DNA of 64,000 nt from a virus, in the IMG/VR virus record IMGVR_UViG_3300013372_001471, positions 1 to 64,000 of that record; one strand, given 5' to 3'. Below, piece after piece: positions 13,306-34,483 of the stretch. Both the position numbers and the translations under genes were made by a program. How positions within the stretch are numbered: position 1 is the first letter of the stretch; every line of letters begins with the position of its first letter. The notes below the pieces were generated by a model. That model had not been told where the DNA came from, did no database searches, and worked only from the letters and a program-made list of their open reading frames with translations.

Positions 13306-13721
13306 TCTTTCTCCAAGAAAACTTTATCAAGTTTCTGCCCCTCATATGGTCCAGTTTTGTATTCATATACAAATGTATCATCTTCAAGAATATAATAGTT
13401 GTGTCCACCTTCAAGTGTAAAACTTGCATCACCAGGATAAAGAATTGGCTCAGCTATAACTACATCATCAATATCATATAAAATACATTTCACACTACCA
13501 CGAACAACTATCCAACTTTCTTGTGCAATAACATTGCGTGTTCTTTCTTTCCAAATATGTTTATGTGGTTTGAAAGTTTTACCTTCTTCCATTTGTAGTA
13601 TAGAACATTGTATGAATTGATTTTCCTCAACAATGTCTTGTCTACCTGGTTTGAAATCTTCTTTACGAACAATAATGTGAAGCAGTTTTTCTGGCTCAAC
13701 CTTTGAGTATATTTTCTCCAT
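13302..13721 (-). CDS. Cupin protein (WbuC-like)
   Basis: PHKH...QE...GGH...EYKTGPY. Confidence 0.7.
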   Translation of the reverse strand: MEKIYSKVEPEKLLHIIVRKEDFKPGRQDIVEENQFIQCSILQMEEGKTFKPHKHIWKERTRNVIAQESWIVVRGSVKCILYDIDDVVIAEPILYPGDASFTLEGGHNYYILEDDTFVYEYKTGPYEGQKLDKVFLEKE

Positions 13722-13722
13722 T

Positions 13723-18625: not shown

Positions 18626-18635
18626 TTTTATATCC

Positions 18636-20060
18636 TCACGCTAAATGTAATCCAAATCTTTTTCTTTTATTGAAGTTAGCAAATGTATTATTTACATCAT
18701 TGATAATTCTATTTCCCATGTGTTCAATACTCATACCAACCTTTTCTTCCATAATAAACTCACGACCTTTTTTACCGGCCTCTTTTCTTTCTTCTTTTGG
18801 TGTTGTATACCATTCATAAATCGCCTGACCAATATCTCTGAAATCTGCACGGTCATCAAAAATGTATGGCGTTGGAACGGAACCTTGTAATGATATATTT
18901 GAAGGCCAAACTGGCTTCACCCAATCACCATGTTTCAAATTACCCCAAACGTCTTTTCTGTGTAATGTATGTATTTTAATATAATCATCTTCTGTAAAAT
19001 AATCATTTGTGTCTGGATTGATAAACCCACATTGGTCTTGCATACCGCCGGTAACATTCACAACAATAGGTGTCCCAGCAGCAAGTGCCTCTGCAGTTCC
19101 TAATCCAAATCCCTCATTTGATGCCATATTGATAACAACATCAGCACAGTTATACATTACATTTAATTTGTCTGACGGGATTACTTTATCATCAAATAAA
19201 ACTTTGTATTCGTTACATAGCTCACCAATCAAAGCAATTAAATCTGTTCCGTTTGGATCGATTGGTTGTGTGTGCATTAACAATAAACAATCGTCACTTG
19301 CATTACCACCATTCTTATCAACCAATTGACAAAAGTGTTTGTAAGCAAGAACAACGTCACCCGGATGTTTACGGTGAATGTTTCTATTGTTCCACATTAC
19401 AATAAACTTATTTTTATTGTCACCACGCAATCTTAAATTTTCAAATTTAAGTGCCTCGTAAAAATTATGCTTTTCATCAATAGGTGTGAATATATTTGTG
19501 TTTATACCGTGTGGAACATATGTTATTCTACGGTTTGAAACATCATCACCTACCCTATTGAATATCCTATTGTTTATACCGTATGTTTGTTTTGAAATTG
19601 CCATCAACAAATCACAACTTGTATATGCATCTTTATTCCACATTGGATCGGTGGCGGTATCACCAACTAAACCAGCTCCATCCCATATGTTCAAATACAT
19701 TAGCGGAATCTTCTGACGTATTTCATGTTCCATATCATATAACCATCCCCAAAATCTTGGATCAGTAAAGTGGAGAATTGCATCCGGCTTTTCATCTTCA
19801 ATCAATCTACGAATTAAAAATGGATCACCGTAACCATCATTACAATATATTCTTACATACGCATCTTCTATTCCATGATTTGTTCTCAAATCTTCTGATA
19901 GGTCTAGGATTTTGCCTTTATCTGGATGATTTATAGCGGCACCAACTTGAATCCAATCAAATTCTTTTGCAGTCCCAATAACTATATCTCGCGATACAGT
20001 TGCGATACCTGATGTTAGTCGCATATCATCTGACAACAATAATATCTTTTTCTTTGCCAT
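18636..20060 (-). CDS. GT4-family glycosyltransferase
   Basis: SGIA, PHG, NRN..RK, NEGFGL...EA. Confidence 0.85.
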   Translation of the reverse strand: MAKKKILLLSDDMRLTSGIATVSRDIVIGTAKEFDWIQVGAAINHPDKGKILDLSEDLRTNHGIEDAYVRIYCNDGYGDPFLIRRLIEDEKPDAILHFTDPRFWGWLYDMEHEIRQKIPLMYLNIWDGAGLVGDTATDPMWNKDAYTSCDLLMAISKQTYGINNRIFNRVGDDVSNRRITYVPHGINTNIFTPIDEKHNFYEALKFENLRLRGDNKNKFIVMWNNRNIHRKHPGDVVLAYKHFCQLVDKNGGNASDDCLLLMHTQPIDPNGTDLIALIGELCNEYKVLFDDKVIPSDKLNVMYNCADVVINMASNEGFGLGTAEALAAGTPIVVNVTGGMQDQCGFINPDTNDYFTEDDYIKIHTLHRKDVWGNLKHGDWVKPVWPSNISLQGSVPTPYIFDDRADFRDIGQAIYEWYTTPKEERKEAGKKGREFIMEEKVGMSIEHMGNRIINDVNNTFANFNKRKRFGLHLA

Positions 20061-20069
20061 GTGAAACCT

Positions 20070-21455
20070 TTATATGTTAAAAAACTTGTGTGTTGTGTTT
20101 GTGGAAACGGTTTGCATATTCAATAACATCTTTCTATACGGTTTGAATTTGTAACCCATTTCTTCGAGAGAAGAATTAAACCAATCTTCCGAATAATCAT
20201 CTTTATTTCTTTTACCATTTGAAATTATTTCATTCATATCACGAACAAAGTTATCAAGTTTATTCATATCTCTGGTTAATCTTATCAATCTTAATCTTCT
20301 TCTATTATATTCTTCTTCGTCTTGTTCTAATTTTTGCATATCTAATATAAGACTTTTCAACGAATTTTCCAAATCATTTATATCATAAGATAAAACTAAT
20401 TCTGCAAATTCAGTTCCTTTGAATAAGTCAATATATGTTTTATCATATATTGGAATAGTCATTAAGTTCTTTTCTATTTGTGCATATTCAAATCTTGGTG
20501 TAATGAACATTCCGAAGAACGGGACTTTTGTATTTGTTGTTGATATACTAAATCTACAACCAGATAAAAAGTCCATCATACTTTCCATCGTATATGTTCC
20601 TGCAAGCACCATGGGTTTATCGTTATCGAACACTTTGAATACAGTTGGATCCAAATCAAAGTCTGGAAGAAATGTATCACTAAAAGTTTTACGAGAAACA
20701 TTTGCGTGTTCTGCCAATATCTTTACATGATTGAAATAATTTTCAGGTGAGTATGTGTTTCCTATATGAACCAATTTCTTACCAGATAAATCTTTCAATC
20801 CTAACTTACCCATTGTTTCTACTATTGGTTTGAAGTTCCCATGACCTTTGAATTTAGCATAGTAAGCACATTCTGAAATGTATGGTAATTCTTTTTTATC
20901 TACCCATGATTTTTCAATCCACTTATCGTAGATACTCATGTCAATATAACCACCGACTTGAAAAGTATATTCAGAAGTTCCTCTCATTCCAATATACTCT
21001 TTGAGTGCATCCACAAAGAACGGTGTGTATGTCAAGTAATAATCACTATACTTTATGAAAGCGGGAACACAAATTGTATTAAAGTGCATACCCTCATACG
21101 GGTATATCTCATGGTCAAAGAATGCAGTTATAGTATTCAACTGACAATACATCTTTGCCAAGTCAATCAATCTTTCTTTATGTTCTGGTTTTCTTTTTTC
21201 GATACCATCAACATCGTAGATAAATTTGTTGAGGTTCAAAACAACAATATCATAACCTTCCAATCTATTTTTCAGTTCATTCATTTCCATTTCGGAAATA
21301 TCTATACAGTTCTGATATTCAGATTTGAAATTATTTGTTTCGCTAGGATTAAAGTAAAATGTATCAACACTATCAAGTGATGATATGTTTTTTGTAAAGG
21401 TATGTATTCCCCTATAAACCGAGAGGTCAATGATTGCTAATTGAGCTATTTTCAC
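20070..21455 (-). CDS. DNA alpha-glucosyltransferase homologue (T4 AGT-like)
   Basis: Colinear resemblance to T4 AGT as recalled: GIHTF~GVTKF, DIVVLN~DILIIN, DHE~HDH, YTFQ~YNFQ, FEYAQIE..TIP~LEYTHLE..TIP, YDINDLE~FDENDME; GTG start. Confidence 0.7.
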   Translation of the reverse strand: MKIAQLAIIDLSVYRGIHTFTKNISSLDSVDTFYFNPSETNNFKSEYQNCIDISEMEMNELKNRLEGYDIVVLNLNKFIYDVDGIEKRKPEHKERLIDLAKMYCQLNTITAFFDHEIYPYEGMHFNTICVPAFIKYSDYYLTYTPFFVDALKEYIGMRGTSEYTFQVGGYIDMSIYDKWIEKSWVDKKELPYISECAYYAKFKGHGNFKPIVETMGKLGLKDLSGKKLVHIGNTYSPENYFNHVKILAEHANVSRKTFSDTFLPDFDLDPTVFKVFDNDKPMVLAGTYTMESMMDFLSGCRFSISTTNTKVPFFGMFITPRFEYAQIEKNLMTIPIYDKTYIDLFKGTEFAELVLSYDINDLENSLKSLILDMQKLEQDEEEYNRRRLRLIRLTRDMNKLDNFVRDMNEIISNGKRNKDDYSEDWFNSSLEEMGYKFKPYRKMLLNMQTVSTNTTHKFFNI

Positions 21456-21604
21456 GAAACACCTAAACTTCCAGTTAAATGATTTAATATAAGTTTTTCT
21501 ATCAATCCACTTAATTTATATCCGTTGTCTTGACAATAGTTTGCCAATTCTTCTTTTATAGAATTGCGAATTTGTATGCTCGAGTATTTTGATTTTGCAT
21601 CCAC
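21452..21604 (-). CDS. Ribbon-helix-helix protein (50 aa, missing from the ORF track)
   Basis: GTG start; MDAKSKYSSIQIRNSIKEELANYCQDNGYKLSGLIEKLILNHLTGSLGVS; stop overlaps the AGT start (GTGA). Confidence 0.75.
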   Translation of the reverse strand: MDAKSKYSSIQIRNSIKEELANYCQDNGYKLSGLIEKLILNHLTGSLGVS

Positions 21605-21624
21605 AACATTCTCTATCAGTTAAA

Positions 21625-21644
21625 CATACATATAAATATGTATG
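21625..21644. promoter_or_regulatory. Palindrome CATACATA-N4-TATGTATG enclosing the ATATTTAT motif; putative operator
   Basis: Perfect 8-bp inverted repeat 20 nt upstream of the RHH gene. Confidence 0.55.
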
Positions 21645-21679
21645 AATTTTAGAAAACAATAGAAAATAGTAGATTTATT

Positions 21680-22591
21680 TTAGAAGGGCGTTATGTTTCT
21701 TTTTTCTTTCGGACAAAGTTCGTAATTGGAATTGAAATCACAATACTTACAATTTGAATAATTGTTACCGCCTTCAGCAGGTTGTATTACCTCCAATTTA
21801 TATTCACCTTCTTCGGTAAAGTTTGTTGTAATAAATTCTGCAATTTCTTTCTTGATATTGTTTTGAGAAACTTTGCCATTGGATGGTTCAAATCTTTGAA
21901 CTCTCTGTTTCATCGCTTCATATTCTGCATCTTCAATAATCTTTCTACGAAGAATTAAATACTCAACATTTATTTCTTCGGGACTAACACCGTATTGTTT
22001 TGCATAATATGTTTTGTAAAGAACAAGTTGCGATGTCTTTACTTTATCAGCTTTGGTATATTTGTTCCAACCATTTGTGCTAGTCTTGAAATCATATATG
22101 TATATCTCGCCGGTCTTTGTATTCTTAATAACTAAATCCAAGAAGCCAACGAGTTTAACTGTGGGATGTGTTTCAAGTGGAACTATGTTTATAGGCAATT
22201 CAATACCAACCAATTCATAATCTTTCTTTTGAAAATAATCGGCTCTATGTGCCTTGAACCAATTAAGAATTTGAACACCGTCTGAATAGTATTCTTTCAA
22301 TTCTTTATCGGTAGAGAAGTGAACATCTTTGTTTTCGGTAAGTAATTTTTTGTATTCATTCCGAATACCTGTTTGTAACATTTCATTGAGGTCCAGTTTA
22401 TTTGCCTCAACAATTGATTTCTCATAGATGGTCTTAACATATTCTTGCAATACTTCGTGCATCGCTGTTCCAAAAAGAGCAGCAGTTGATGGTTGATATG
22501 TTGCAAGTTTATCAATGTATGTTAGTTTCCATCTATGAGGACAATCCTTCCACATTTGATATTGTGAAAAAGATACTTTTCTGTTAGGCAT
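21680..22591 (-). CDS. Cas4/RecB-like PD-(D/E)xK nuclease
   Basis: CP..W, G..MH, GFLD, DFKT, QL..Y, CxxC..C. Confidence 0.85.
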   Translation of the reverse strand: MPNRKVSFSQYQMWKDCPHRWKLTYIDKLATYQPSTAALFGTAMHEVLQEYVKTIYEKSIVEANKLDLNEMLQTGIRNEYKKLLTENKDVHFSTDKELKEYYSDGVQILNWFKAHRADYFQKKDYELVGIELPINIVPLETHPTVKLVGFLDLVIKNTKTGEIYIYDFKTSTNGWNKYTKADKVKTSQLVLYKTYYAKQYGVSPEEINVEYLILRRKIIEDAEYEAMKQRVQRFEPSNGKVSQNNIKKEIAEFITTNFTEEGEYKLEVIQPAEGGNNYSNCKYCDFNSNYELCPKEKRNITPF

Positions 22592-22977
22592 TATTTACCC
22601 CACTTGCCAGACTGAACAAGTTGTGCAATGATACCATACACAGAAATATCTTTGAATGTATCATCAAGACTTTCACCGACTGCATCTTTTGAACCAAACA
22701 TAATCATTTGTTTATATCTGTTTATTTTATCGTTCAATCTGAAAAACAATCCTTGTAAAGATAACTTTCTATCTTCTTCTCTTTCCAATGATGAACCCAT
22801 GGATATATTATCCGGACCATAATTTTTCTGCTTACGGCAAAACAATTCATATTGTTCGGCTTGTATTCTCTTAAATTCTGCCGTCATAACAGGAAACTTT
22901 TCTTCTATTTCCAAAACAGCTTCGTGTTTTTTTATACCCAAATCTCTTTCTGTTATTGCCATTTTAGTGTTCCTCAT
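22591..22977 (-). CDS. Nucleotide modification associated domain 1 (DUF1599-like)
   Basis: K...YG, R..DK..R, ES..DT..D...Y..I; alternative start 22962. Confidence 0.8.
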   Translation of the reverse strand: MRNTKMAITERDLGIKKHEAVLEIEEKFPVMTAEFKRIQAEQYELFCRKQKNYGPDNISMGSSLEREEDRKLSLQGLFFRLNDKINRYKQMIMFGSKDAVGESLDDTFKDISVYGIIAQLVQSGKWGK

Positions 22978-23426
22978 TTTATATTCTTTAATTGTTTTTC
23001 AAATTTAGTAATATCCGCTTCGGGTGTTCCATACAGTTTCAATATATCGGTCAATTCATCTGGATTGTTTTCTTTAATAAAACGAATATACTCATACACT
23101 TCATTTCTTCCCAACTCAAAGTGGTTACAAAATGTAGATAGAATTTGTGGTTCTATTTCCATTTTGTGTTTGGACTTTATGTATTTCAGAAAGATTGATT
23201 TCTTTGGTAGAATATCTAGCAAAAGTTTATAGTAATCTCTTGAAGATAGTATTCCATTTGAATATGTTTGAAATTCATTTATGACTTCAACAAATTCTGG
23301 TTCCATTGAAAAGAAACGAGCAATCATATAATTGCTCCATGACTTTGTATCTTCTTCTGAAAGTTCTTCCCATTTTGTTTTACGGAAAGTAACACCTTTA
23401 ATATGATCAAATAAACTTTTTGCCAT
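22974..23426 (-). CDS. Clamp loader small subunit (gp62-like)
   Basis: SLFD N-terminus, YMI.RFFS..., FLKYIK; near the clamp loader ATPase. Confidence 0.7.
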   Translation of the reverse strand: MAKSLFDHIKGVTFRKTKWEELSEEDTKSWSNYMIARFFSMEPEFVEVINEFQTYSNGILSSRDYYKLLLDILPKKSIFLKYIKSKHKMEIEPQILSTFCNHFELGRNEVYEYIRFIKENNPDELTDILKLYGTPEADITKFEKQLKNIK

Positions 23427-23434
23427 GATAATCC

Positions 23435-23704
23435 TTAATCGTTTAGTTGTTGTCTTTTTGTTGGCATAAATTCGTCATTGATATTACCACATTCTAAACA
23501 AGCATAAGTTGGAATTGGAATGATACCTTCTTGTCCTGTTGGTGAAAGTAGTGCAGAAATCTTTTTGAAGAATGTTACTTCGTGAAAGAATTTATTACCA
23601 CATTTTGAACATTCAATATCTGATGCCTGATTGATGTCCACTGTAACTTGTTGTGGTTCTTGTTGTGGTTGTCCACCACCGTTAATGTCATAAATACCCA
23701 TCAT
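23435..23704 (-). CDS. Zinc ribbon protein
   Basis: CSKCG...CLECG. Confidence 0.7.
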   Translation of the reverse strand: MMGIYDINGGGQPQQEPQQVTVDINQASDIECSKCGNKFFHEVTFFKKISALLSPTGQEGIIPIPTYACLECGNINDEFMPTKRQQLND

Positions 23705-24642
23705 TTTCTCCTTTGGTCAATTTCCATAATAATTTGAATAAACATAGCCATGGCATTTATTTCATGGTCTACAACAAAACTGTCTTTGTATTGTGCTTCA
23801 GCAATAATCAAAATGATAGTTGATACGAAACCATTTGCGTATGTATCAACGGTATCGTAAAGATGTCTGAACATTTGATTGAAGTCACGAACATGATTGT
23901 CAGCAAGTAACTGACGAATACCATCGAACTTTTCTTTTTTGTTTTTACTTGATTTTAGAATATCAACAATCGAAGAAAGATAATTGTGTTCTACCAAAGT
24001 TGTTTCATCCAATTTCAAAACACCACCAATAACACATCGTTGAGTTGTGTTAATTACACGGCGAATATCTGGATAAGATTGATTGATAATTGTTGCAAGA
24101 TTATCTTTCTCATATTTTACATTCTCACCATCAAGAATTTTTACAAGATGTTGTGCAACTTCTTTCTTCGATGGTGGAACTATGTTAAAGATTTGACAAC
24201 GAGATTGAATTGGATCAATAATCTTATCTACATAATTACAAGTTAAAATAAAACGAGTTGTCTTACTAAATGTTTCAATAACATTACGAAGTGCTGCCTG
24301 GGCATTCGGTGTCATGTAATCACATTCATCCAATATAATTAGCTTCAATCCACCAAATCCAATTGAAGAAGCAAACTGTTTGATTTTATCACGAACAGTA
24401 TCTACTGAATTTTCGTCTGAAGCATTGATGTAAATGTAGTTATCTTTTGCGATAGTATTTGCAACAATCTTAGCAAGTGTGGTTTTACCACTACCAGCAT
24501 CACCATAAAGAAGTAAATGTGGAACATCGTTTGTCTCAATATATTGTTGAAAGGTTGATTTTACAGTATCGTTGCCAACATAAGTGTCAAGTGTTTGTGG
24601 GCGATACTTTTCATTCCAAATTGTGTGTGAAGTGTTAAACAT
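23701..24642 (-). CDS. Clamp loader ATPase (RFC/gp44-like)
   Basis: W.EKYRP, G.GKTT, NASD, LDE.D, SRC. Confidence 0.95.
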   Translation of the reverse strand: MFNTSHTIWNEKYRPQTLDTYVGNDTVKSTFQQYIETNDVPHLLLYGDAGSGKTTLAKIVANTIAKDNYIYINASDENSVDTVRDKIKQFASSIGFGGLKLIILDECDYMTPNAQAALRNVIETFSKTTRFILTCNYVDKIIDPIQSRCQIFNIVPPSKKEVAQHLVKILDGENVKYEKDNLATIINQSYPDIRRVINTTQRCVIGGVLKLDETTLVEHNYLSSIVDILKSSKNKKEKFDGIRQLLADNHVRDFNQMFRHLYDTVDTYANGFVSTIILIIAEAQYKDSFVVDHEINAMAMFIQIIMEIDQRRK

Positions 24643-24701
24643 AACATACCTTATAGATTGATAAATTCATATGCTAATATATGTATTTTTCGCCTAATAT
24701 C

Positions 24702-25772
24702 CTAGCGATTTTTTTGAAATACGAAGATTGGCTCTCTTTTATAGCCAGCTCCCATGACTGCGGACAGTATCAGTTGTAGAGTATCGGTGTGATCGAAACC
24801 AACTAGGTTGGCATATTTTATAGTCATTTCTTCCAAATCTTTATACTTTGGTGTGTTGGCTATGTTTATTAACATATAGCCACCCATTTTTAGACCGTGA
24901 TAACAATTACGGAATGTTGATTGAAGAAATCCAGATCCCCATTCTTCTCTTGTTGGGAATTTGTTATACGATTGAGTTTCTTCGTCTGCATATTTTTCAG
25001 TATCGAAATATGGTGGCGAAGTAAAACACAAATCCAAACTATCTTTTTGTGGGATATAATCTTCTGAACCCATCATGTTCAATTGAATATCTTTGCCAAG
25101 ATATGCAAAGTCATCACGAAGTTTACAAAGTCCTTCAAATGTTTTGGTTGATGGTTCTGTTCCGATATAAGTTTTAATATATGGTGAAGCAAGAGCACCA
25201 ACCAATCTGCCACCCCAACCACAAGACATATCCCACATCACACCATCACCGCCATATTTTTTATAGATAACACCGGCAGCAGTTGGTCTGAAATTGGAAA
25301 CACCTTGAACACCAGAATATATTTTAAGTGATTGACGAAGACGGTTCTCTTGGAAAGAAGTGCCCCAATGTTTTGACAACCACTTCAAACATTTGCGTAT
25401 TGTCATTTTGAATGTTTGGTCATTCAAAAAGTTATCCATTGGAGACATCTTTGAGTTCCCGCATTTAACTTCCATTGCATGCGGAAAGTATGACCACGCC
25501 AATCGAAGTCCGTTCATGGTTTGAATTATATCACCGTCTTTGAAAATACTATCATAATCGAATTGTTGTAGTTTTCTCATGTGTTCATGTTTTTCTTGTT
25601 CGGTGATTTTCATATATGGATAACCGTGTTTGCGGTAATACTGAAAGATACAATCTATCGTATCATCCAATTCTCTTTTACCTGCAAAAAATTCACCGGT
25701 CTCTTTCCACAAACGAACTTCTAGCGGATCAACATCAAAAAATTTACTTAAACTATCGCTGTTTGGTTTCAT
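24702..25772 (-). CDS. DNA amino-methyltransferase-like protein A (N4-C/N6-A type)
   Basis: DMSCGWGGR (motif I), FTSPPYF (motif IV). Confidence 0.8.
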   Translation of the reverse strand: MKPNSDSLSKFFDVDPLEVRLWKETGEFFAGKRELDDTIDCIFQYYRKHGYPYMKITEQEKHEHMRKLQQFDYDSIFKDGDIIQTMNGLRLAWSYFPHAMEVKCGNSKMSPMDNFLNDQTFKMTIRKCLKWLSKHWGTSFQENRLRQSLKIYSGVQGVSNFRPTAAGVIYKKYGGDGVMWDMSCGWGGRLVGALASPYIKTYIGTEPSTKTFEGLCKLRDDFAYLGKDIQLNMMGSEDYIPQKDSLDLCFTSPPYFDTEKYADEETQSYNKFPTREEWGSGFLQSTFRNCYHGLKMGGYMLINIANTPKYKDLEEMTIKYANLVGFDHTDTLQLILSAVMGAGYKREPIFVFQKNR

Positions 25773-25773
25773 G

Positions 25774-27399
25774 TTATGGTTTATAGAAAACGAATACTGG
25801 TTCGTATTTGAACCATTCGCCGTTGTATAATACTTTATTTGCTAATCTCTCTGGATCGGAATTACCAATCATCTTTGTCATAAGCATTCCCATCTTACCT
25901 TTGTATTCCATACCCAAAGATTTCAAAATGTTTATTGAGTCTTCTTCAAGATGTATTGTTTTATTTGCAGATACTTTGATATTTGCAATGTTCCAACAAA
26001 GATACCGGTCATTTTTCAAATACTCTACGGCAGTTTCCAATGTTGGTTTCAAAAAGTTATCACGCCAGTCTGCATATTCTCCATGTGCCTTATATGATTG
26101 TGTGTCATCATCGGAATACATTTCGCGATTGAAATACGGTGGTGATGTGAAAACAAAATCTAATTTACCTTTATACTTTTGGAAATCAGGATTGAATTGT
26201 ATTGTTTCAGAACCGTCTTGGAAAACTTCGTATGTGTGATTTTCTTTTACATCAAAGAATTTTGATGATAGTGAACTACCCTTCTCACCAATTGACTTCA
26301 AGTAAAAGTCTGCAAGATATTCATAACGAGTTATTCCTAAATCAGGAATTGAATTGTCCGTATTAGGATCTGTTCCAACATAATGTATCGGTCTACTCAC
26401 CGACATTGCTCCCAAAATTCTTCCACCCCAACCTGCACTTGGATCATAAACTGTAACGGTTTCACTTGCAGGAACGTGTTTTGTAAAATGTTCATACAAA
26501 AACTTTGCAGTCATTGGTGGAAAGTTTACAGCAGGTTGTGAGAAAGAAATACGGAATATCTGAAATGCTTGTGGAAATAATCTTGCACTCTTTTCATACA
26601 CTCTAACCAAGAAAACATTTACTCTTGGTTCTTCACCGTCTTTCTTTATCATAAAGTTATCGGACAGTTCATCTATATCACCCAAATAAAATATCATACT
26701 AGCATCAAGTATACCATCCTTAACAAACTCACGGATTTGATCCGCCTTAATAGTTAGATACTTTGTATATTTTTTATTATAGGTTTCAAGTGTGCAAGAT
26801 ATTTTTGATATGCGTAAACCTTGTCCGTCAAATCTACCATCACCATTTTTGAAAGCAACGAAGAAGTCTCTTAATGTTTCACCTTCTCTGAAATATGGGT
26901 TCTTAATTTGATTTGAGGAAATAGATTTACTATAAAGATACATTGAGTCATTGTAAAGAGTTCTACGCATAACATGATGAAAAGTATCTTTCATTTCATC
27001 GGTGAAGAAATCATAAATAGATCTAGATGTTTCACCGTTTGTTCCACTTGCAATCTTCGTCTTTAACATAGTTGGAAAGAATTGATTAGCAGCAGAACCA
27101 TTTTTAGAGAAGTTAGCAATGACGCCGATTATATCTTCGTCATTGCCTTTCTCTGGACTATGAAAGATTTTTGAGGTATTGAACTGACGTAGTTTTGAAA
27201 ATGATTGAACAATCTCTTCTTCGCTTCTGCCAACAAGAGGCGGTTTACCACTTTCATCCCAATCTTTCAAAAACCTCATTCGTAATTCTTCTATCCATTC
27301 TGAAAACTTATTATCATCATAAGTTACCAATTCGCCGTATGTAATGTTTGACGACCAGGATAGAACATCACTCTTTTCATAAAAATACTTTTTCATCAA
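25774..27399 (-). CDS. DNA amino-methyltransferase-like protein B
   Basis: DPSAGWGGR, FTSPPYF; long N-terminal region. Confidence 0.8.
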   Translation of the reverse strand: MMKKYFYEKSDVLSWSSNITYGELVTYDDNKFSEWIEELRMRFLKDWDESGKPPLVGRSEEEIVQSFSKLRQFNTSKIFHSPEKGNDEDIIGVIANFSKNGSAANQFFPTMLKTKIASGTNGETSRSIYDFFTDEMKDTFHHVMRRTLYNDSMYLYSKSISSNQIKNPYFREGETLRDFFVAFKNGDGRFDGQGLRISKISCTLETYNKKYTKYLTIKADQIREFVKDGILDASMIFYLGDIDELSDNFMIKKDGEEPRVNVFLVRVYEKSARLFPQAFQIFRISFSQPAVNFPPMTAKFLYEHFTKHVPASETVTVYDPSAGWGGRILGAMSVSRPIHYVGTDPNTDNSIPDLGITRYEYLADFYLKSIGEKGSSLSSKFFDVKENHTYEVFQDGSETIQFNPDFQKYKGKLDFVFTSPPYFNREMYSDDDTQSYKAHGEYADWRDNFLKPTLETAVEYLKNDRYLCWNIANIKVSANKTIHLEEDSINILKSLGMEYKGKMGMLMTKMIGNSDPERLANKVLYNGEWFKYEPVFVFYKP

Positions 27400-28115
27400 T
27401 TGTTATCCAATTTTACTAAATAATACTTTGCATCAAAGTCATCAATATCAAATTCAACTTTCGCCAAACCTTCGGATGAAACTTTGAGTGTTCCACCATT
27501 CAAGTCTTTGTTAGCGGCAAGAATACCATTGAAGTATTTTGCAGAGAAACTGATTGGTTCAATATCACCACTTGCATTGCAATCAATATCAATAGAGATA
27601 CGGTTTGAATTTGTATTTGAATAACCAAGAACAATTTGATACTTATTTAATTTTTCATTCTTTAATACTGTAAACTTTTCAATATCCGAAAGAGCAGATT
27701 TTGCCTTGATGAATTTATCAATAAATTCTTTTGTAATTGTAATATCCAATTCAAAATTGGGCAATTCTTTTAGGTCTGGTGCAGGTGGAATAACTGCAAG
27801 GTCAGCCAACATATAATTTACAGTAGTTGATTTGTCATCAATTGTCAATGAGAATGCCTTATCACCGGCACCGTTCACTTGAAAGTTTACTGTGTTACCA
27901 AGAACACCCAATAGACTTACAAGCAAGTCTGTGTTATACACACCGAATTTCCAATCATCACCTTGAAAACTTTTCAACTTAACTTCGCCAACCACACATT
28001 TATCATCGGAAATAAAACGAGTGGAAAGCCCACCATTTACATTCCAAGCAACAGACTGTATCAATTTACCCAAATGATACTTACTGATAAAGTTCAACAA
28101 CTTTGATTTTTCCAT
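27396..28115 (-). CDS. Sliding clamp (gp45/PCNA-like)
   Basis: 239 aa two-domain pattern, LKVSSEGL...F...YYL C-terminus; lies between polymerase and clamp loader. Confidence 0.8.
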   Translation of the reverse strand: MEKSKLLNFISKYHLGKLIQSVAWNVNGGLSTRFISDDKCVVGEVKLKSFQGDDWKFGVYNTDLLVSLLGVLGNTVNFQVNGAGDKAFSLTIDDKSTTVNYMLADLAVIPPAPDLKELPNFELDITITKEFIDKFIKAKSALSDIEKFTVLKNEKLNKYQIVLGYSNTNSNRISIDIDCNASGDIEPISFSAKYFNGILAANKDLNGGTLKVSSEGLAKVEFDIDDFDAKYYLVKLDNN

Positions 28116-28150
28116 AACAACAATCCTTAATGATTAGTAAATAATTTATG

Positions 28151-28181
28151 CTAATATATGAAATTTTTGCGTAATTTCAAA
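28151..28181 (-). promoter_or_regulatory. Host-type promoter TTTG-N19-TATATTAG upstream of the clamp
   Basis: Direct motif match. Confidence 0.6.
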
Positions 28182-30693
28182 ACGAAAAAAACTTTTGTGC
28201 AACTTTTTTATTCTCCGTTGGGAAATCCCACTTCATTGCCTCATAGAAGTTCTTTAACTTGCCATCCAATTCCGAAACAAATAATTCATTGGCATCAAAA
28301 TAATCCTTGACAAATTGTATAATTTCTTCTGGATCCGAATCACCACGAAATGCCAACTCCTCCAACCCATACTTGTTTGATTTCAAATAAGCAATCTTAA
28401 CCTTGTCACCATTTTTAATTGGCGGATATTTCGGAGGACAACCAAATGTTTTCAATAACTTATTATAGTTTATGGCAGCTTTGATATGTGATGGAGTTCC
28501 CTTTGCATACTTACCGAGAACATCATCCTTTACCAAAGTTTCATACTTTTTAATATCTTTGATTGAAGAATTTTTAGCAACCTCTGCATACAATACCGTG
28601 TTCAAATTCTTTTTGAAAGACAATATGTATTCATCAATTTCATTCTTATCTTTACCTTTGAGAATATCAATCATCACATCCTTCATACACTTCTGAAATG
28701 ATTTGGGGAATGATGAACGAACAATATCCAAACCCTTAACTTCCAACTTATCCATTGGAACACCGTTATCCGAAATAATCCAAAGAGCATATCTTTTTTT
28801 CTTTTGCCAGAAACCTGTTCTACCAATCATTTCTTGTTTGATTTCCAAACGATGTTTGTCAGTATTGAATATCTTTTTGGCAAATACATCATAGAATTGA
28901 TTAACATAATCTTGAACTTCCGTTGCAATCTCATAAATCTTTGGTGTCATTGTTTCAATATCATTTGTATCAATGTCCGGAAATCTATTCTTCACCAAAG
29001 GTAAACAAGAAACAAACACAGAGTCCGTATCAACATACTGAACATAATCAAGGTTATCAGTTTTCAATTCTTTATTGTATTTCATATTGATAGCAGCTTC
29101 TGTTTTCTTAATAACCGTTTGACCGGAAAGTGTAACTGCCTCTGCATTATCAATATCATAGAAACGAAATGCAGGTAAACCAAGAATACCATACATACTA
29201 TTCAAAAGAATTTTCTGAACAAGCTGTCTTTTCTTGTAGAACTCATACTTGTCTGTGTCACCGGCTTTACCCCACTTCTTCATTTCATTTTTATACTCAA
29301 CCCTTTTATCAAACCAATCAGAAAGAATTGCTGGAATGAGTCCGGTTTTGTCTGAACTATACATAACACCGTTTGATGCAACTGTGTATTTGTATTTGTC
29401 CAAGAATGCCTTTAACTTTTCTTTCGATACCTTTTCACCACCAACAATGTATTCATCCTTTCTTCCACGGTTAAAATCTTCAGCATTCCAATCTTCAATT
29501 TTGGCAATCTTTGTTTCAGGAGAAATGTTTAGTGTCATAATGATTGACGGATATAGTGATGTCAAATCCAAGTCATACATCCAATCATATCTACCAGGAA
29601 CAGGATCCTTAACGAATGCACCGATAAAACCTTTCTCACCACTCTCACGCAATTCTTGCATCTTCTCTTGTCTATCTGCTGGTTTGTTCGGAGCAACAAC
29701 ACCACCAATATGTTTAAGATAAGTAAGCATAGCTCCTTCCAAATACTTTGATGAATATACAAAGTCTTCATAAGGAACATGACCAACATGAGCGATACCA
29801 CGAACTAAATCAATATACTGTAACTTCTTGTCTAATTCGATAACTAACTCAACGTCAGTAATGTTGTATTCGATAAATGTATCAATATCATTTTCCATCA
29901 AGTCATCAAGGTTGCCCTCATATTCAATCTTACCACGACCAAGTTCTGTCATACAAACTGCATTTAGGGCATAAGATGGCAATTCTTTATATGAGAACTT
30001 TTTATACACAGTCATATAATCCAATACGGATGTTCCACCGATTGTGTAACGATTACGATACGGCGAATAAAACATTTCACCAATCACAGAAAGATTGTTT
30101 GCGTGCTTCTTACCAAGAACTCTTTTTATACGATTGTGTAAATATGGAATATCGAATGCATCACAATTCCAACCAGTCATAACATGGGGTTGAATTTCTT
30201 GAATTGCATCTATGAATTTAAGTAGTAAAGTTTTTTCATCATAACAAGGTATGACCGTTTTGTTATCCGTAGTTTTCCCATCTAATTTTCTTTTCTTATC
30301 CAATACAAGAATTGTATAATGGTTTGATGCAGAGTCATGGTAAGCAATTGATGTTACTTCATTATTACCTTGTGTTGGATCCGGAATACCGGTAATCATT
30401 TCAACCTCAATATCGAATGTCATTGTTACAATTCCCTTCGAGGGCATATCGGAATCGCCATACATATCTACAAGAATACGAGTTGTCTCTGCAATATCGG
30501 ATTCAAATAGGTCAGGATCGTTTTTAATAAAGTTTGTAACCTTTGAAAGTTTATCACCGTATAGAGAAATATATTTACCATTGGGATCTTTCTTGTAAGC
30601 ATACGGCGTATACTCAAAGTGCATCAAACCTTTTGCATCATCCCATACCCACGCTTCTTTTGTATTTGTTTTAACGAAAATGTTTTGATACAT
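28177..30693 (-). CDS. Family B DNA polymerase (gp43-like), 838 aa
   Basis: DIE exonuclease motif, DLTSLYPS, K...NS.YG, YVDTDS; true start MYQNIF at 30693. Confidence 0.95.
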   Translation of the reverse strand: MYQNIFVKTNTKEAWVWDDAKGLMHFEYTPYAYKKDPNGKYISLYGDKLSKVTNFIKNDPDLFESDIAETTRILVDMYGDSDMPSKGIVTMTFDIEVEMITGIPDPTQGNNEVTSIAYHDSASNHYTILVLDKKRKLDGKTTDNKTVIPCYDEKTLLLKFIDAIQEIQPHVMTGWNCDAFDIPYLHNRIKRVLGKKHANNLSVIGEMFYSPYRNRYTIGGTSVLDYMTVYKKFSYKELPSYALNAVCMTELGRGKIEYEGNLDDLMENDIDTFIEYNITDVELVIELDKKLQYIDLVRGIAHVGHVPYEDFVYSSKYLEGAMLTYLKHIGGVVAPNKPADRQEKMQELRESGEKGFIGAFVKDPVPGRYDWMYDLDLTSLYPSIIMTLNISPETKIAKIEDWNAEDFNRGRKDEYIVGGEKVSKEKLKAFLDKYKYTVASNGVMYSSDKTGLIPAILSDWFDKRVEYKNEMKKWGKAGDTDKYEFYKKRQLVQKILLNSMYGILGLPAFRFYDIDNAEAVTLSGQTVIKKTEAAINMKYNKELKTDNLDYVQYVDTDSVFVSCLPLVKNRFPDIDTNDIETMTPKIYEIATEVQDYVNQFYDVFAKKIFNTDKHRLEIKQEMIGRTGFWQKKKRYALWIISDNGVPMDKLEVKGLDIVRSSFPKSFQKCMKDVMIDILKGKDKNEIDEYILSFKKNLNTVLYAEVAKNSSIKDIKKYETLVKDDVLGKYAKGTPSHIKAAINYNKLLKTFGCPPKYPPIKNGDKVKIAYLKSNKYGLEELAFRGDSDPEEIIQFVKDYFDANELFVSELDGKLKNFYEAMKWDFPTENKKVAQKFFSF

Positions 30694-30694
30694 A

Positions 30695-31921
30695 TTATAC
30701 CTTCTTAAACATCCATATTGGTTCACAAAACTTTTTATCTTTATTTTCTTCAGCGAACTGAACACTATCATTGAGAAAGTGTCCGTCTCTTGTAGCAGTT
30801 CCTGCACCAGCAGAATTAGGTCTCTTTGACATTTCCATTCCAATACAACCCAAGTATTCCATTCCACTCTCTACCAGAAAATCATTCATTGGATTTGTTA
30901 TCTCCAACCATTGTCTACCGGTAGACCATGCAGAATTTGTGTAAACATCTGCAATGTTTATCGCCATTACACCACCAACTCTCAATGATGGTATAATGTT
31001 CCCAAGCGTCTTATGTAGAAAATCTTTATTCCACATATCAATTCCTTTATATCGAACCCAACTTTGTGTATCGGATTGAGAATACTTCTCAACATTAAAA
31101 TATGGTGGTGATGTAAATACCAAATCAAAATGTTCTGGATATTGTGAGAAATCAAAATCTTCTGCGGGTGATTTGTAGAAATTTGTTTTCTTCTTACCTT
31201 CAAAGAAACCTAAATTCTTTTCATAGAACTGGACTTGTTCATCATATATCGGATGATTTTCTACTCTTGGATCCAATCCAACATAATGTTCGGTGCAAGA
31301 TGCTGCGTAAAATCCAGCAAGTCTATCACCCCATCCCATAGAAAAGTCTAATACATTTTTTGCACCTAACATTTCATACATACACTTTGCAACATTCGGT
31401 TTGAATTGAGAACAAATGTATTTACGCAATCCTAACATTGTTCTTAATTCTGATTTACCAAGTGTTTCCATTTTAAGAGAATACATAGAACCCATAAGTG
31501 ACTTCATAAACTTATGGTTTTGCCATGTTCTAGCAGGACCTGGTGATACAGATGCATCAACTTCCCAACGGTTCTTTTGTTGGAAATAGTTTGATGCATC
31601 GTTACCAGTATTAAGACGACTGAAATATAACTGTTTTCCACCATAATTCAAAGCATATTTTGGTTCGGATGCTTTTCTTGGAAACCACTCACCTTCTTTT
31701 AGGATTTCATTCCAACGAATACCTTTCAATTTTAGAAACTCACTTTGAGCGCTTTCAATTGTAATATCCGCATAAGGTAGTGAATATGTCATTGCTATTT
31801 CAGCCAGACGGTCTTTGACATATTCTTTATCAAAGTTTTCTTTTATGTATGTTATTTGTTCGGCAGTTATTGATAAATACGGATCCATTCCGTAAAATTG
31901 TTGGAAATAATCTTCTTCCAC
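30695..31921 (-). CDS. DNA amino-methyltransferase-like protein C
   Basis: DFSMGWGDR, FTSPPYF. Confidence 0.8.
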   Translation of the reverse strand: MEEDYFQQFYGMDPYLSITAEQITYIKENFDKEYVKDRLAEIAMTYSLPYADITIESAQSEFLKLKGIRWNEILKEGEWFPRKASEPKYALNYGGKQLYFSRLNTGNDASNYFQQKNRWEVDASVSPGPARTWQNHKFMKSLMGSMYSLKMETLGKSELRTMLGLRKYICSQFKPNVAKCMYEMLGAKNVLDFSMGWGDRLAGFYAASCTEHYVGLDPRVENHPIYDEQVQFYEKNLGFFEGKKKTNFYKSPAEDFDFSQYPEHFDLVFTSPPYFNVEKYSQSDTQSWVRYKGIDMWNKDFLHKTLGNIIPSLRVGGVMAINIADVYTNSAWSTGRQWLEITNPMNDFLVESGMEYLGCIGMEMSKRPNSAGAGTATRDGHFLNDSVQFAEENKDKKFCEPIWMFKKV

Positions 31922-31934
31922 AAAACACCATTTG

Positions 31935-32231
31935 TTAATCTATTGAATAAAAACTTCCTATGCGGTCACGAAGGTCATACACTATTTGGTATTTTCCATT
32001 AAATTCCTCTTGTGTATAAACAACAGGTTTACCGTGTTCAACTACTATGTATGAATTTGGGAAACATTTTTGTCCGTCACCGAATGTTATTACATATTTG
32101 TTTTCAAAGTTTTCATTTCTTCCAATAATACATTGCCATTTTTCAGATGCAACTTTTGCAGATTCTTCACTACCGTTAAAATGATAAGCGGTGAATTTAC
32201 TTTTTCTGGGTTCAACCATAACAAAATCCAT
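31935..32231 (-). CDS. Small phage protein
   Basis: A..F.G...YIV...F...Y pattern. Confidence 0.55.
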   Translation of the reverse strand: MDFVMVEPRKSKFTAYHFNGSEESAKVASEKWQCIIGRNENFENKYVITFGDGQKCFPNSYIVVEHGKPVVYTQEEFNGKYQIVYDLRDRIGSFYSID

Positions 32232-32236
32232 AACAA

Positions 32237-32521
32237 TTACTTCCTCATAATTTTTGTTTTAACTTCTTGCATAAATTCTGTATCATCATCACGTATTATT
32301 GGATCAATGTATCTTTTACCATCTTTTGCCATAGTCCAATCGTCAGAAATTTCTTCTTCCTTTGGCATCATTATTTCTTCCAACAATTCTAAATCACCAT
32401 GAGTAGAAGTAATATGATCACGAATTTGTTTTCTATTCTTACGGTGTGCGTGAACTTTATCATACTTTTCAGAAGTCCCTGCATTGCCTATTATAGGATT
32501 TTTTCTATATGAGCGGCTCAT
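32237..32521 (-). CDS. Basic hypothetical protein (MSRS.RK.P family)
   Basis: MSRSYRKNPI...SEK.DK..A.R..R, W.M.KDGK. Confidence 0.6.
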   Translation of the reverse strand: MSRSYRKNPIIGNAGTSEKYDKVHAHRKNRKQIRDHITSTHGDLELLEEIMMPKEEEISDDWTMAKDGKRYIDPIIRDDDTEFMQEVKTKIMRK

Positions 32522-32542
32522 AATAATACCTTTAATAAAAAA

Positions 32543-33190
32543 TTAAATGTCAATATCTTTCCAATCTCCACTTGCAATAGTCTTTGTTGCCCACTTACCC
32601 ATTATATTTGCATTTTTGTAGTAGTTATCTTCAACAACCGTTTCGAGTAATGTGTTTTCAAACATAAAAGGTCTACCACTAACCTTTGTCATAAATTCTC
32701 CACCTTGTCCCATCTTTCTATCTTTGAATTTCACCTCTTTACCAAAACCTGGAAATCCATTTGGACAATCATTTGTTCCAATCAATACAGAACCATCGCC
32801 ATCTTTTGGTATGTATAATATAGAATCTTGTTGGTATTTTCCACCAAGATTTATTAAATCTTCTCGAAGTTTGCCTTTATCATTCAAATCAACAACAAAG
32901 TAAACATTTTCTTTTACCTCTTTAGCATCAGCCGTTCCAAAGTTTTCAATATATGCACCTTGAACATCAGTCACGCCATAGCCCATCATTTGAAGATTTG
33001 CATACAATTGTCTGTTTCTTTTTTGATTATCAGCTTTTGAATACTCTTTATCTTCTGGACCGGCACAACCTTCTTTGGAACGAAACGCAGTTATTGTTCC
33101 ACAATCATGTTCTTCCATATGTTTTGCCAAACGAGCAAGTCCACTTTCGTTCAATTGTTTATCTGGTAATAAATGTTTTAACTTTGCCAT
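32543..33190 (-). CDS. DUF3293-like protein with KLK.LL...LNE leader
   Basis: ITAFR, N..RN..L, G.Y.E, KY.QDSIL. Confidence 0.6.
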   Translation of the reverse strand: MAKLKHLLPDKQLNESGLARLAKHMEEHDCGTITAFRSKEGCAGPEDKEYSKADNQKRNRQLYANLQMMGYGVTDVQGAYIENFGTADAKEVKENVYFVVDLNDKGKLREDLINLGGKYQQDSILYIPKDGDGSVLIGTNDCPNGFPGFGKEVKFKDRKMGQGGEFMTKVSGRPFMFENTLLETVVEDNYYKNANIMGKWATKTIASGDWKDIDI

Positions 33191-33234
33191 TGTTTCTCTC
33201 TGTTATGTAAAATGTTTTACAATAAATATCAAAA

Positions 33235-33732
33235 TTATTTCTTATCTGTTGAACCAAAACCGCCATCGCCTCTATTACTATCAGACAACTCTTGCACTTC
33301 TTCCAAATGAACTTTTGGATATGGAATGATTATCAATTGAGCAACTTTGTCACCAACAACTGGAATAATACCATCGGGTATTATACCGGGATAAGGCAAT
33401 TCAAATCTCACAAGAATTTCACCACGATAATTTGAATCAATAACACCAACTGAATTTTTTAGTGATACTCCTTGTGGTGCCTTTGTTATTGAACTTCTTG
33501 GAAAAAGTAATCCAACATGACCATTTGGAATTTCTACTGCGATGCCTGTTCCGTATTCCATGAAAGTTTCGGTTACTCTAAACGATGTTGCAACCAAGTC
33601 CATCCCAGCATCACCGGCTTGAGCATATCGTGGTGTTACTGCTTCGGGAACTAATTTACGAAATTTTACGGTTAGATCCAAATCATTTTTATATTCTACC
33701 GTAACATTAGGATGCGATATATGCCAACCCAT
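33235..33732 (-). CDS. dut: Trimeric dUTPase
   Basis: AGMDL, PRSS, GVIDSNYRGE, RGDGGFGST. Confidence 0.95.
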   Translation of the reverse strand: MGWHISHPNVTVEYKNDLDLTVKFRKLVPEAVTPRYAQAGDAGMDLVATSFRVTETFMEYGTGIAVEIPNGHVGLLFPRSSITKAPQGVSLKNSVGVIDSNYRGEILVRFELPYPGIIPDGIIPVVGDKVAQLIIIPYPKVHLEEVQELSDSNRGDGGFGSTDKK

Positions 33733-33733
33733 T

Positions 33734-34483
33734 TTAACCTCCTACATTCCAAAATAATGCATCTTCCGATGCGTGTTCTTTAATAAATGACCAAACTTTT
33801 GAGTCATAGTAATCCGAAGAAGGAAACGGTGGTTTCTCTAACGGTTTACATTTTTGTTCAAATTTATACTTCGATATGAATAATTCTGCCCTACCCCGCT
33901 CTCTGTCTGTTGTATTATGGCCAACCCTAACTCCATACACTTTAGCATCTGGCCATGCCTTCTGTAATCCTCTTGAAAGAACTCCGGAACTTATGCAAGA
34001 CCAAACTTCTTTTGGTTTGATTGGCAATTGGCTAGCAATTCTAGCAGCTTCATCAATGATAACGGGATGGTCAAGACCAAAAGGTAGTAATTGTGCACCG
34101 GGTGTTTCTACTGCATATTTTTTAGCAACATGCTGAATATGGGTTAGGAATCCCATAGGAACTTCTATAATGTTTGCACCAATAGATAGTGCCTCTACGG
34201 TTAGTGGTAAATGTTTTCCCTTTGGAATAACTACGGTTGCCTTCAATCCTAAATCTTTACAAGCATAAGCAAGTGCAACTTGAGCATAGCCAACTCTTGG
34301 AGAAGCATATACCCATTCACTCACATGGGACTGTGATTGAAGATACCGATAAAGGAAACGTCTTTTTGTTCCACCAGGAAGTAAATCATCACGGACTACC
34401 CAAATGTTTTCGTGTTTTTCGATAACAATTTCGGGTAAAGTTACGGTGACATCTTTCGTTGGATATTGAAAGAAGTCTGACAT
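33734..34483 (-). CDS. Fold-type II PLP-dependent enzyme of the kind found in phage DNA-modification loci
   Basis: VRDDL..GGTK.R, SP..GYA, SSG, YD.K.W, LFWNVG. Confidence 0.75.
   Translation of the reverse strand: MSDFFQYPTKDVTVTLPEIVIEKHENIWVVRDDLLPGGTKRRFLYRYLQSQSHVSEWVYASPRVGYAQVALAYACKDLGLKATVVIPKGKHLPLTVEALSIGANIIEVPMGFLTHIQHVAKKYAVETPGAQLLPFGLDHPVIIDEAARIASQLPIKPKEVWSCISSGVLSRGLQKAWPDAKVYGVRVGHNTTDRERGRAELFISKYKFEQKCKPLEKPPFPSSDYYDSKVWSFIKEHASEDALFWNVGG

Follow-up and report, generated by a model that had tools for sequence, protein, structure and literature searches.

The DNA considered here, referred to as the window, is a 64-kb stretch of a 73.1-kb viral contig (positions 1 to 64,000 of IMG/VR record IMGVR_UViG_3300013372_001471), and its long open reading frames (ORFs) all lie on the minus strand. 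Positions 20070-34483 are a T4-type replisome module of an uncultured phage, into which putative DNA-modifying enzymes have been inserted. Read along the minus strand, the first half of the module encodes a pyridoxal phosphate (PLP) enzyme of the PALP family, a dUTPase, a protein resembling S-adenosylmethionine (SAM) lyases, two small ORFs, methyltransferase (MTase) C, the DNA polymerase (Pol) and the sliding clamp. The second half encodes MTase B, MTase A, the large clamp loader subunit, a Zn-ribbon protein, the small clamp loader subunit, an Nmad1-like protein, a PD-(D/E)XK nuclease and a protein resembling the T4 DNA α-glucosyltransferase (AGT). Three paralogous SPPY amino-methyltransferases sit inside the replisome module, and a glycosyltransferase adjoins it. 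An original prediction, made from the DNA letters, held that the modifying enzymes ride the clamp by means of short aromatic peptides and possibly build one compound base. We find that MTase A, MTase B and the AGT-fold glycosyltransferase probably carry peptides resembling the Pol tail that dock on the clamp, a view to which conservation, the flexibility of the segments, a co-fold of MTase A, the tails of a marine lineage and precedents in T4 all contribute. The same cannot be said of the MSDFF start of the PALP protein, the MTase C loop or Nmad1.

Pol (28177..30693; all features given below are likewise on the minus strand) is a family B polymerase of 838 residues from its MYQNIF start, and matches PF00136 (E 9.3e-41) and PF03104. 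The clamp gene (27396..28115) encodes a gp45/PCNA-like protein of 239 residues that matches phrog_223 (E 4e-9); further PCNA and DnaN matches are weak, PCNA appears in a sequence search of the PDB only at E 0.73, and an hhalign comparison of the clamp alignment with T4 gp45 is not significant (probability 0.7%). The gene is syntenic with the one that lies between PolB and HolB in Microcystis phage Mel-JY01, the nearest cultured relative, with a PolB identity of 62.4%. Phage records other than Mel-JY01 fall below 60%, at ~31-32% among the matches listed. In Mel-JY01, PolB, clamp and HolB are contiguous with no genes inserted between them, and no homologue of MTase A was found in that phage at E <= 1e-3. 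In the window, 1 nt separates the MTase C stop from the Pol start, the start of MTase B is overlapped by the clamp stop, and MTase A starts 1 nt from the stop of MTase B. With such tight packing, these genes are likely to be co-expressed with those of the replisome.

A short aromatic peptide is common to Pol and three of the enzymes. Pol ends in ..KKVAQKFFSF (QKFFSF at 28180-28197), and across the window's lineage this tail takes the form [QS]KFF[SND][FIV]. The AGT-like ORF of 461 residues (20070-21455) ends in HKFFNI (20073-20090), and MTase A has SLSKFFDV in its N-terminal tail (residues 7-14; 25731-25754). In MTase B the string SLSSKFFDV (residues 376-384; 26248-26274) belongs to a loop that lies after motif I (SAGWGGR) and before SPPY. 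In each of the three enzymes the peptide lies on a flexible tail or loop with a linker, to judge by the predicted local distance difference test (pLDDT) for MTase A and the AGT-like protein, and by a variable G/S linker with an indel for MTase B. The strings and the gene order quoted in the original prediction are all present where it placed them, and the loop relations that it described hold in our alignment of the three MTases (A1).

It could be argued that the enzymes are merely freely diffusing orphan MTases and a glycosyltransferase encoded among replication genes, that KFF arises from AT-rich composition or from the structure of the folds, and that the Pol tail alone binds the clamp. Multiple orphan MTases are common in phages, which fits this explanation. 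KFF does occur in 8 further places beyond the four proteins, as the original prediction had cautioned, and the genome is AT-rich. The KFF of a FEN/RNase H protein (GLGDKTILKFF) and that of the Zn-ribbon protein are probably structural parts of their folds rather than clamp motifs. When 83 ORFs (23,642 residues) were subjected to 2000 within-protein shuffles, however, the 12 observed occurrences of KFF compared with 4.7 +/- 2.1 expected, a count reached in 5 of the 2000 shuffles. KFF no more than 15 residues from a terminus was found in 4 ORFs against 0.45 expected, which was reached in 1/2000 shuffles and argues against composition as the source. Plain FF showed no enrichment (63 against 60.8 expected; reached in 803 of 2000), and a regular expression that gave 4 occurrences against 0.02 expected was fitted post hoc and is not counted as a test. 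At the DNA level, 27 matches to the pattern KFFxx-stop were found in five related records (554 kb), and a reversed-pattern control matched at least as often. The matches that close ORFs of at least 300 residues number eight, namely four Pol, three AGT-like and one other, and this near exclusiveness on long ORFs is also difficult to explain if the enzymes diffuse freely.

Conservation of the peptide points in the same direction. The KFF core of Pol is kept in 40/40 orthologue ORFs, including that of Mel-JY01 (LSKFFNFK); KFFNI is invariant in 22/22 orthologue ORFs of the AGT-like protein, behind a variable linker; and the FF of MTase B is the same in all 31 distinct orthologue sequences, the most divergent of them at 70% identity, behind a G/S-rich linker that varies and contains an indel. 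In Pol, MTase A and MTase B, TTT/TTC and AAA/AAG alternate at the motif. Synonymous change of the F and K codons implies selection on the peptide rather than on the DNA, which counts against free diffusion, and an artefact of A/T runs was rejected for these three proteins. Such an artefact is still conceivable for the tail of the AGT-like protein, in which close orthologues all use the same codons. The MTase A tail and the MTase B loop are at non-homologous positions in A1 and use different codons; the two copies therefore arose separately, and the codons of MTase B indicate that it did not acquire its peptide as a recent DNA copy from MTase A. Near-identical 8- to 9-mers at such sites are hardly expected of enzymes that have no partner in common. 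In Mel-JY01, where the Pol tail is kept, the MTases, the AGT-like gene and PALP have no counterpart in the region, and none of the 34 annotated coding sequences of the 26.5-kb stretch except Pol has a terminal KFF.

The conservation that the original prediction proposed to check among orthologues is borne out for Pol, the AGT-like protein and MTase B, but for MTase A it holds in a looser form. In an alignment of 56 MTase A sequences (A2), L8 is present in 45, F11 in 37 and D15 in 47, 49 have F, L or I at position 12, and positions 2-7 vary. In the wider family the pattern is no longer KFF but L-x-x-F-[FLI]-[DG]-x-D, and 95 of 119 homologues have an extended motif.

The strongest comparative argument comes from a distant marine lineage whose proteins are 59% (MTase A), 46-48% (Pol) and 42% (clamp) identical to those of the window. 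The gene order in 38 loci is Pol, clamp, a PALP-like protein of 324 residues, a CxxCxxCC protein (PF03692) and an orthologue of MTase C. Marine Pol ends in [IL]ERFF in 29/29 ORFs that reach the C-terminus, and FF likewise ends the PALP-like protein in 32/33 ORFs ([KE]H[DNG]FF) and the CxxCxxCC protein in 30/30 (H[EG]FF), in each case after a variable linker. The clamp (0/30) and MTase C (0/36) never end in this way, and other ORFs of at least 100 residues do so in 4 of 175 cases. Accessory enzymes thus appear to copy the Pol tail of their own lineage, with a KFFxx end in that of the window and an xFF end in the marine one. Because the type of tail tracks the lineage's own Pol, we take the peptides to be probable functional docking elements, and FF ends on three clamp-adjacent proteins but almost nowhere else would be a surprising coincidence if the enzymes were free of the clamp. 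The marine PLP and CxxCxxCC proteins are candidates for clamp clients in their own right. Their genes directly follow the clamp gene at L172:1402-2895 (G001:C1:66401-67895) and at 37 further loci (L176-L212).

A structural prediction is also in agreement with docking. The clamp trimer was co-folded with residues 1-32 of MTase A, from alignments that we had built, in three runs and with 3 controls, against a mark that is reached by 58 of 80 solved complexes and by 2 of 110 mismatched pairs. The score was 0.67 in all three runs, compared with 0.32 for the best control and 0.00 when an unrelated protein replaced the clamp, so that the peptide-clamp check put forward in the original prediction gave a model in favour of docking for the one peptide on which it was run. 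Contacts agree to at least 96% between runs, and the pLDDT of the partner is at least 71. Residues 7-8 and 10-14 of MTase A (L8, K10, F11, F12, D13, V14) touch one clamp protomer at residues 35-42, 113-119, 215-217 and 232-237; the predicted peptide pocket of the clamp comprises residues 35, 38-42, 113-119, 146, 191, 215-217 and 232-237. Many of the contacted clamp positions are invariant or nearly so in alignment A4. By comparison with PCNA and gp45 structures, we take this surface to be the interdomain connector and the C-terminal pocket that receive PIP-type (PCNA-interacting protein) peptides. The model supports docking of MTase A L8, F11 and F12 in the canonical clamp pocket, and that the co-fold passes its controls speaks against an unattached MTase A.

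Since the co-fold covered the clamp only, one could also propose that the shared peptide is a genuine short linear motif for some other partner (the clamp loader, the gp32-like single-stranded DNA-binding protein (SSB) or the polymerase), or a signal for degradation or localisation. The motif is common to Pol and is confined to replisome-linked genes, as this proposal would require. Yet the predicted contacts of L8, F11 and F12 lie in the canonical pocket, the score falls to 0.00 with the unrelated protein, and the equivalent Pol tail of T4 and RB69 binds the clamp, as do its copies in ligase, gp33 and gp55 (PMC7892883, PMC6212786). We therefore consider another partner very unlikely.

Several observations weigh against clamp docking and should be set beside the evidence for it. 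The co-fold supports one candidate peptide, that of MTase A; its partner was a 32-residue fragment cut from its fold, and a clamp trimer with alignments of our own differs from the material on which the tool was calibrated. The pass may also reflect the model's memory of PCNA-PIP or gp45-peptide structures. The invariant tail of the AGT-like protein is weak evidence, because none of its orthologues falls below 92% identity. In the first 22 residues of the 119 wider MTase A homologues, literal KFF occurs in 11 and FF in 20, and the tail is missing from three MTase A orthologues at ~70% identity. The AlphaFold2 (AF2) model draws residues 5-11 of MTase A as a helix. In A1 this N-terminal element pairs with the N-terminal segment of MTase C and, inside MTase B, with the string TLRDFF, so that it may have originated as an ancestral structural helix. 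The loops of MTase B and MTase C can also be aligned FF to FF, as would be expected if these aromatic pairs belonged to the fold. A homologue in Vibrio phage 2.058.O, at 41% identity, has no tail, which is a single weak observation from a partial record. No clamp of this family was found in that partial record, in a search that had no positive control. For the AGT-like enzyme, finally, the PF00303 hydroxymethylase is absent from four of five related records, which are 38-70% complete (the window's own contig is 41% complete), and the fifth has a weak match of 25.9 bits. That match, to the thymidylate synthase family (L083, G007:C1:64317-64706), is on the contig of locus L042, at the position that PALP occupies in the window.

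On balance, we think it rather likely that one or more of MTase A, MTase B and the AGT-like enzyme are tethered to the clamp. The motifs, their placement, their conservation and their specificity are direct observations; that the MTase B loop and the AGT-like tail also bind the clamp is suggested by analogy with MTase A and T4. The 8 additional KFF sites, the homology of the MTase A element to segments of its paralogues, the few literal KFF matches in the wider family and the tailless Vibrio-phage homologue leave freely diffusing enzymes as a possible but distinctly less likely explanation.

The three MTases are paralogues, B being 30% and C 24% identical to A (A1). MTase A (24702..25772; 356 residues) has the motif order X (NFRPTAA), I (SCGWGGR) and IV (SPPY). 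MTase B (25774..27399; 541 residues) has an extra N-terminal region of ~170 residues besides its loop insertion, and a sequence search of the PDB with it returned nothing usable. MTase C (30695..31921; 408 residues) matches phrog_12517. Against the PF01555 cut-off of 26.7 bits, MTase A scores 28.8 and MTase B 27.4, with MTase C below it at 21.5; coverage in all three is of profile positions ~2-107 of 221, matching from SPPY onward. All three have motif I (GWGGR or GWGDR) and SPPY, and the model of MTase A has a class I fold. Motif I is upstream of SPPY (residues 183/252 in A, 321/419 in B and 194/271 in C), which departs from the beta-class order of PF01555, where IV precedes I, and which we take to be the gamma-type order. 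The AF2 model of MTase A is good (pLDDT 88.4, predicted template modelling score 0.87), with a mean pLDDT of 47 for residues 1-10. Foldseek matches it to class I amino-MTases in the Rossmann half only, at template modelling (TM) scores of ~0.4, among them Trm11 tRNA m2G MTases and a type I M subunit, and its N-terminal helical domain of ~150 residues has no solved relative. MTase A has 2453 homologues at E <= 0.001, in a viral family with the automatic name 'cytosine-N4-specific'. The MTases presumably act on DNA, with N4-cytosine or N6-adenine as target.

In MTase C, the loop string NLGFFE (31199-31216) aligns with the MTase B loop, at a position where MTase A is gapped, and is conserved as NLG[FW]F[ED]. 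It was proposed as a docking motif but is a short insertion without a flexible linker, and we do not support that role for it. The N-terminus of MTase C, (M)EEDYFQQFYGMDPY (31889-31912), is homologous to the MTase A tail and reads DYF[QD][QK]F[YR] in orthologues, the marine lineage included. From its sequence, this phi-x-x-F-phi element may be a better docking candidate than the loop, although a weaker one than the peptides of MTase A and MTase B.

The AGT-like protein (20070..21455) is a GT-B glycosyltransferase that can be assigned at the level of fold. It has no Pfam, PHROG or NCBIfam match; PF11440 is absent from the protein itself, from five records at E <= 1 and from six distant homologues; an hhalign comparison of its alignment with T4 AGT is not significant (probability 0.9%, E 0.062); and a sequence search of the PDB gave nothing usable. 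Its AF2 model is moderate (pLDDT 74.3, from an alignment of 8 sequences; below 50 for residues 448-461). When the model was compared with the PDB by Foldseek, T4 AGT occupied ranks 1-7, 9 and 10, with target-normalised TM scores of 0.71-0.74 and a best E of 5.8e-13, the next-best family being HepE (TM 0.62-0.65). In the ESM Atlas its top clusters are PF11440, with a score of 0.97, and there are 8 representative clusters only among 1.84 billion proteins. The description as an AGT homologue therefore stands for the fold and fails for the sequence: by its model, the protein has the AGT fold and is not a member of the AGT family. The C-terminal extension of ~55 residues ends in HKFFNI here and in QKFFNI in most orthologues (T[QHK]KFFNI). 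Viral and metagenome scans for distant AGT-like lineages returned only the window's own.

Among the distant homologues, P0123-P0125 have a C-terminal extension of ~50 residues that ends in RKLF, GLF and KVL, and the shorter P0126-P0128 have none. A sugar-nucleotide and glycan island (5971-20060) abuts the AGT-fold gene. It encodes two NAD-dependent epimerase/dehydratase-type enzymes, one of them a full-length match to a GDP-mannose 4,6-dehydratase model, together with a DegT aminotransferase fragment, a PhyH dioxygenase, a hexapeptide acyltransferase, a KAS III-like enzyme and GT2, GT7-like and GT1 transferases.

A more elaborate scheme would unite the three MTases, the AGT-like protein, the PLP enzyme and Nmad1 in one assembly line on the clamp that builds a single compound hypermodified base. 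The PLP enzyme (33734..34483; 249 residues) is a fold-type II enzyme that matches PF00291 (E 2.3e-10) and phrog_7093, and its nearest PDB entry is L-serine dehydratase (E 2.3e-7). PALP and an MTase C orthologue are near the clamp in both lineages, at the 38 marine loci and, in the order PALP...MTase C-Pol, in the window, and the marine PALP and CxxCxxCC proteins have Pol-like FF ends, as such an assembly would predict. The window's own PALP lacks the C-terminal FF tail of its marine homologues, however, and ends in ..FWNVGG. Its start, MSDFF (34469-34480), had been proposed as a docking motif. By eye, MSDFFQYPT aligns with the marine M[IL][DN]FDNFPT, and the segment is therefore more likely ancestral than a docking peptide.

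The Nmad1/DUF1599-like protein (22591..22977; 128 residues) does not fit the assembly either. Its identity is uncertain: the match to PF07659 covers residues 82-119 only and is sub-threshold (22.1 bits against a cut-off of 25; E 1.9e-4), and phrog_1485 (E 1.1e-11) is of unknown function. The protein is also present in the marine lineage and in Mel-JY01, which has no MTases in that region, so that its inclusion in the line is not upheld.

Nor are the components inherited as a unit. Among syntenic relatives, L042, L049, L050 and L055 have no MTase C beside Pol, and the AGT-like gene is absent from L042, L044, L049 and L055. L049 and L050 have PALP but no MTase C, and for L040 the reverse is true. 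The marine loci seen have neither MTase B nor the AGT-like gene and carry a different set. Moreover, the three MTases are paralogues of one enzyme type rather than successive chemistries, and the search for PF00303 described above found no hydroxymethyl-pyrimidine synthase in four of the five incomplete records. The single compound base suggested in the original prediction is thus the least probable of the explanations considered here, and we regard it as most unlikely.

Two further findings could be read in favour of such a base. One marine record has genes for a shikimate-kinase-like P-loop kinase (PF01202, E 3.6e-36) and a SPASM/radical-SAM protein, and a gene of the SAM-lyase family lies near PALP in the window. 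The marine kinase and radical-SAM protein resemble enzyme types of the thymidine hypermodification pathways reportedly described by Lee et al. in 2018. These two genes (L172:2897-4428, in G001 only) lie between the CxxCxxCC gene and MTase C, and their products end in ..SEVF and ..LKGF; the radical-SAM gene is also present in L190. A tblastn search of the window's own contig at E <= 1e-3 gave no match to the marine CxxCxxCC, SKI-like or radical-SAM proteins. The SAM-lyase-family protein (32543..33190; 215 residues) matches PF23780 (E 1e-13), had no match in a sequence search of the PDB, and is mentioned here as context only, as is the dUTPase (33235..33732; PF00692, E 1.8e-16). The SAM-lyase-family gene is two genes from that of the PLP enzyme, with the dUTPase between them, in a phage with three SAM-dependent methyltransferases; it is odd for an enzyme that degrades SAM to be encoded so near to enzymes that use it.

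A related scenario, which we consider improbable but worth stating, is that the clamp serves as a platform for an undescribed hypermodification. One or more SPPY paralogues would place a SAM-derived group on an exocyclic nitrogen, a clamp-tailed PLP enzyme (with the CxxCxxCC metalloprotein in marine relatives) would process it, and the AGT-fold enzyme would add a sugar from the adjacent island, with no hydroxymethyl-pyrimidine precursor involved.

The remaining genes of the module and its surroundings are those of a replication region. The clamp loader AAA+ large subunit (23701-24642) and small subunit (22974-23426) lie in a region with matches to phrog_225, AAA, DNA_pol3_delta2 and Gp44_lid, and between their genes is the Zn-ribbon ORF of 89 residues (23435-23704). 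The PD-(D/E)XK nuclease (21680..22591; PF12705, E 8.5e-27) is a conserved neighbour outside the claim made here. The synteny of its gene is kept across all lineages, and its C-terminus, KRN[ITAM][ML]PF, is kept in the freshwater lineage and lost in more distant relatives. To the right of the module are genes for a ribonucleotide reductase, a DnaB-like helicase, a FEN-type exonuclease, a RecA/UvsX-like protein and a gp32-like SSB. The SSB (46988-47743) ends in an acidic-aromatic tail, ..VTFDDLF, which by eye resembles the partner-binding tails of SSBs. In several relatives (L031, L038-L040, L178-L183, L202 and L207) polB matches as two separate ORFs, a pattern that points to an insertion (an intein, an intron or a homing endonuclease) or to a frameshift within the gene.

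If MTase A, MTase B and the AGT-fold enzyme are indeed clamp clients, a simple mechanism can be envisaged. Modifying enzymes would have been inserted into the replisome module and provided with copies of the clamp-binding peptide of Pol. The Leu, Phe and Phe side chains of the peptide would enter the hydrophobic pocket under the interdomain connector of the clamp and hold the enzyme on clamps that remain on newly made DNA. The nascent DNA would thus be methylated, and perhaps glycosylated, closely behind the fork, and the modification would protect it from host nucleases. Each enzyme would act independently of the others.

Such an arrangement would add protective DNA modification to the 'tool-belt' role of the clamp, which already covers replication, repair and late transcription, and copies of the Pol tail would bring orphan methyltransferases and a DNA glycosyltransferase to nascent DNA. 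It would explain how phage DNA can be fully modified ahead of host restriction enzymes. It would also provide a sequence rule for recognising clamp clients in uncultured phages, namely copies of the phage's own Pol tail. Because the MTase A family is large, with many members from marine metagenomes, the mechanism could be widespread.

There are several known systems with which these proteins can be compared. With the N6/N4 amino-methyltransferases of PF01555, the MTases share the SPPY motif IV, a G-x-G motif I, the class I fold, carriage by phages and the lack of a partner nuclease; unlike those enzymes, they have motif I before IV, match half of the profile and possess an uncharacterised helical N-terminal domain of ~150 residues. 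In eukaryotes, DNMT1 is recruited to replication forks through a PIP box that binds PCNA. DNMT1, however, is a eukaryotic cytosine-C5 maintenance methyltransferase, whereas the enzymes here are phage amino-methyltransferases of gamma order with an anti-restriction rationale.

For the AGT-fold protein, the relevant precedent is T4 α-glucosyltransferase, a GT-B DNA glucosyltransferase on the clamp and the best structural match of the 461-residue protein. Its interaction with gp45 was reportedly described by Sommer et al. in 2004, and the pull-down has been repeated: the α-enzyme co-purifies with gp45 and the β-glucosyltransferase does not, and the available text names no site on gp45 for it (PMC13216743). 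The window protein differs from T4 AGT in being outside PF11440 by sequence and in having the extra tail of ~55 residues, and the 5-hydroxymethylcytosine pathway of T4 was not found for this phage in the PF00303 search of incomplete records.

The closest parallel to MTase B is T4 DNA ligase, which likewise carries a copy of the Pol tail in a flexible loop inserted in its catalytic domain: the loop of the ligase, EPEGLDFLFD, is a copy of the gp43 tail EKASLDFLFG with a Kd of 10.7 uM for gp45, and the peptide alone binds the clamp pocket (PMC6212786). The enzyme here is instead a methyltransferase, its peptide is KFF[DSN][VFI] rather than LDFLF, and binding is predicted, for the MTase A tail only. 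Together with T4 α-glucosyltransferase, the ligase makes tethering to the clamp plausible. The T4 proteins gp33 and gp55 offer a second parallel, since they have linker-attached motifs that bind a hydrophobic patch of each clamp protomer, so that several unrelated proteins of one phage share a polymerase-type motif, as in the window (PMC7892883). Those proteins are transcription factors, whereas the proteins considered here are DNA-modifying enzymes. Among the matches listed in our literature search, the titles and the openings of abstracts contain no report of a phage DNA methyltransferase that binds a sliding clamp. What is new here is the case of phage amino-methyltransferases as clamp clients and of several modifying enzymes with one motif and, in relatives, of a PLP enzyme and a metalloprotein with ends like that of Pol.

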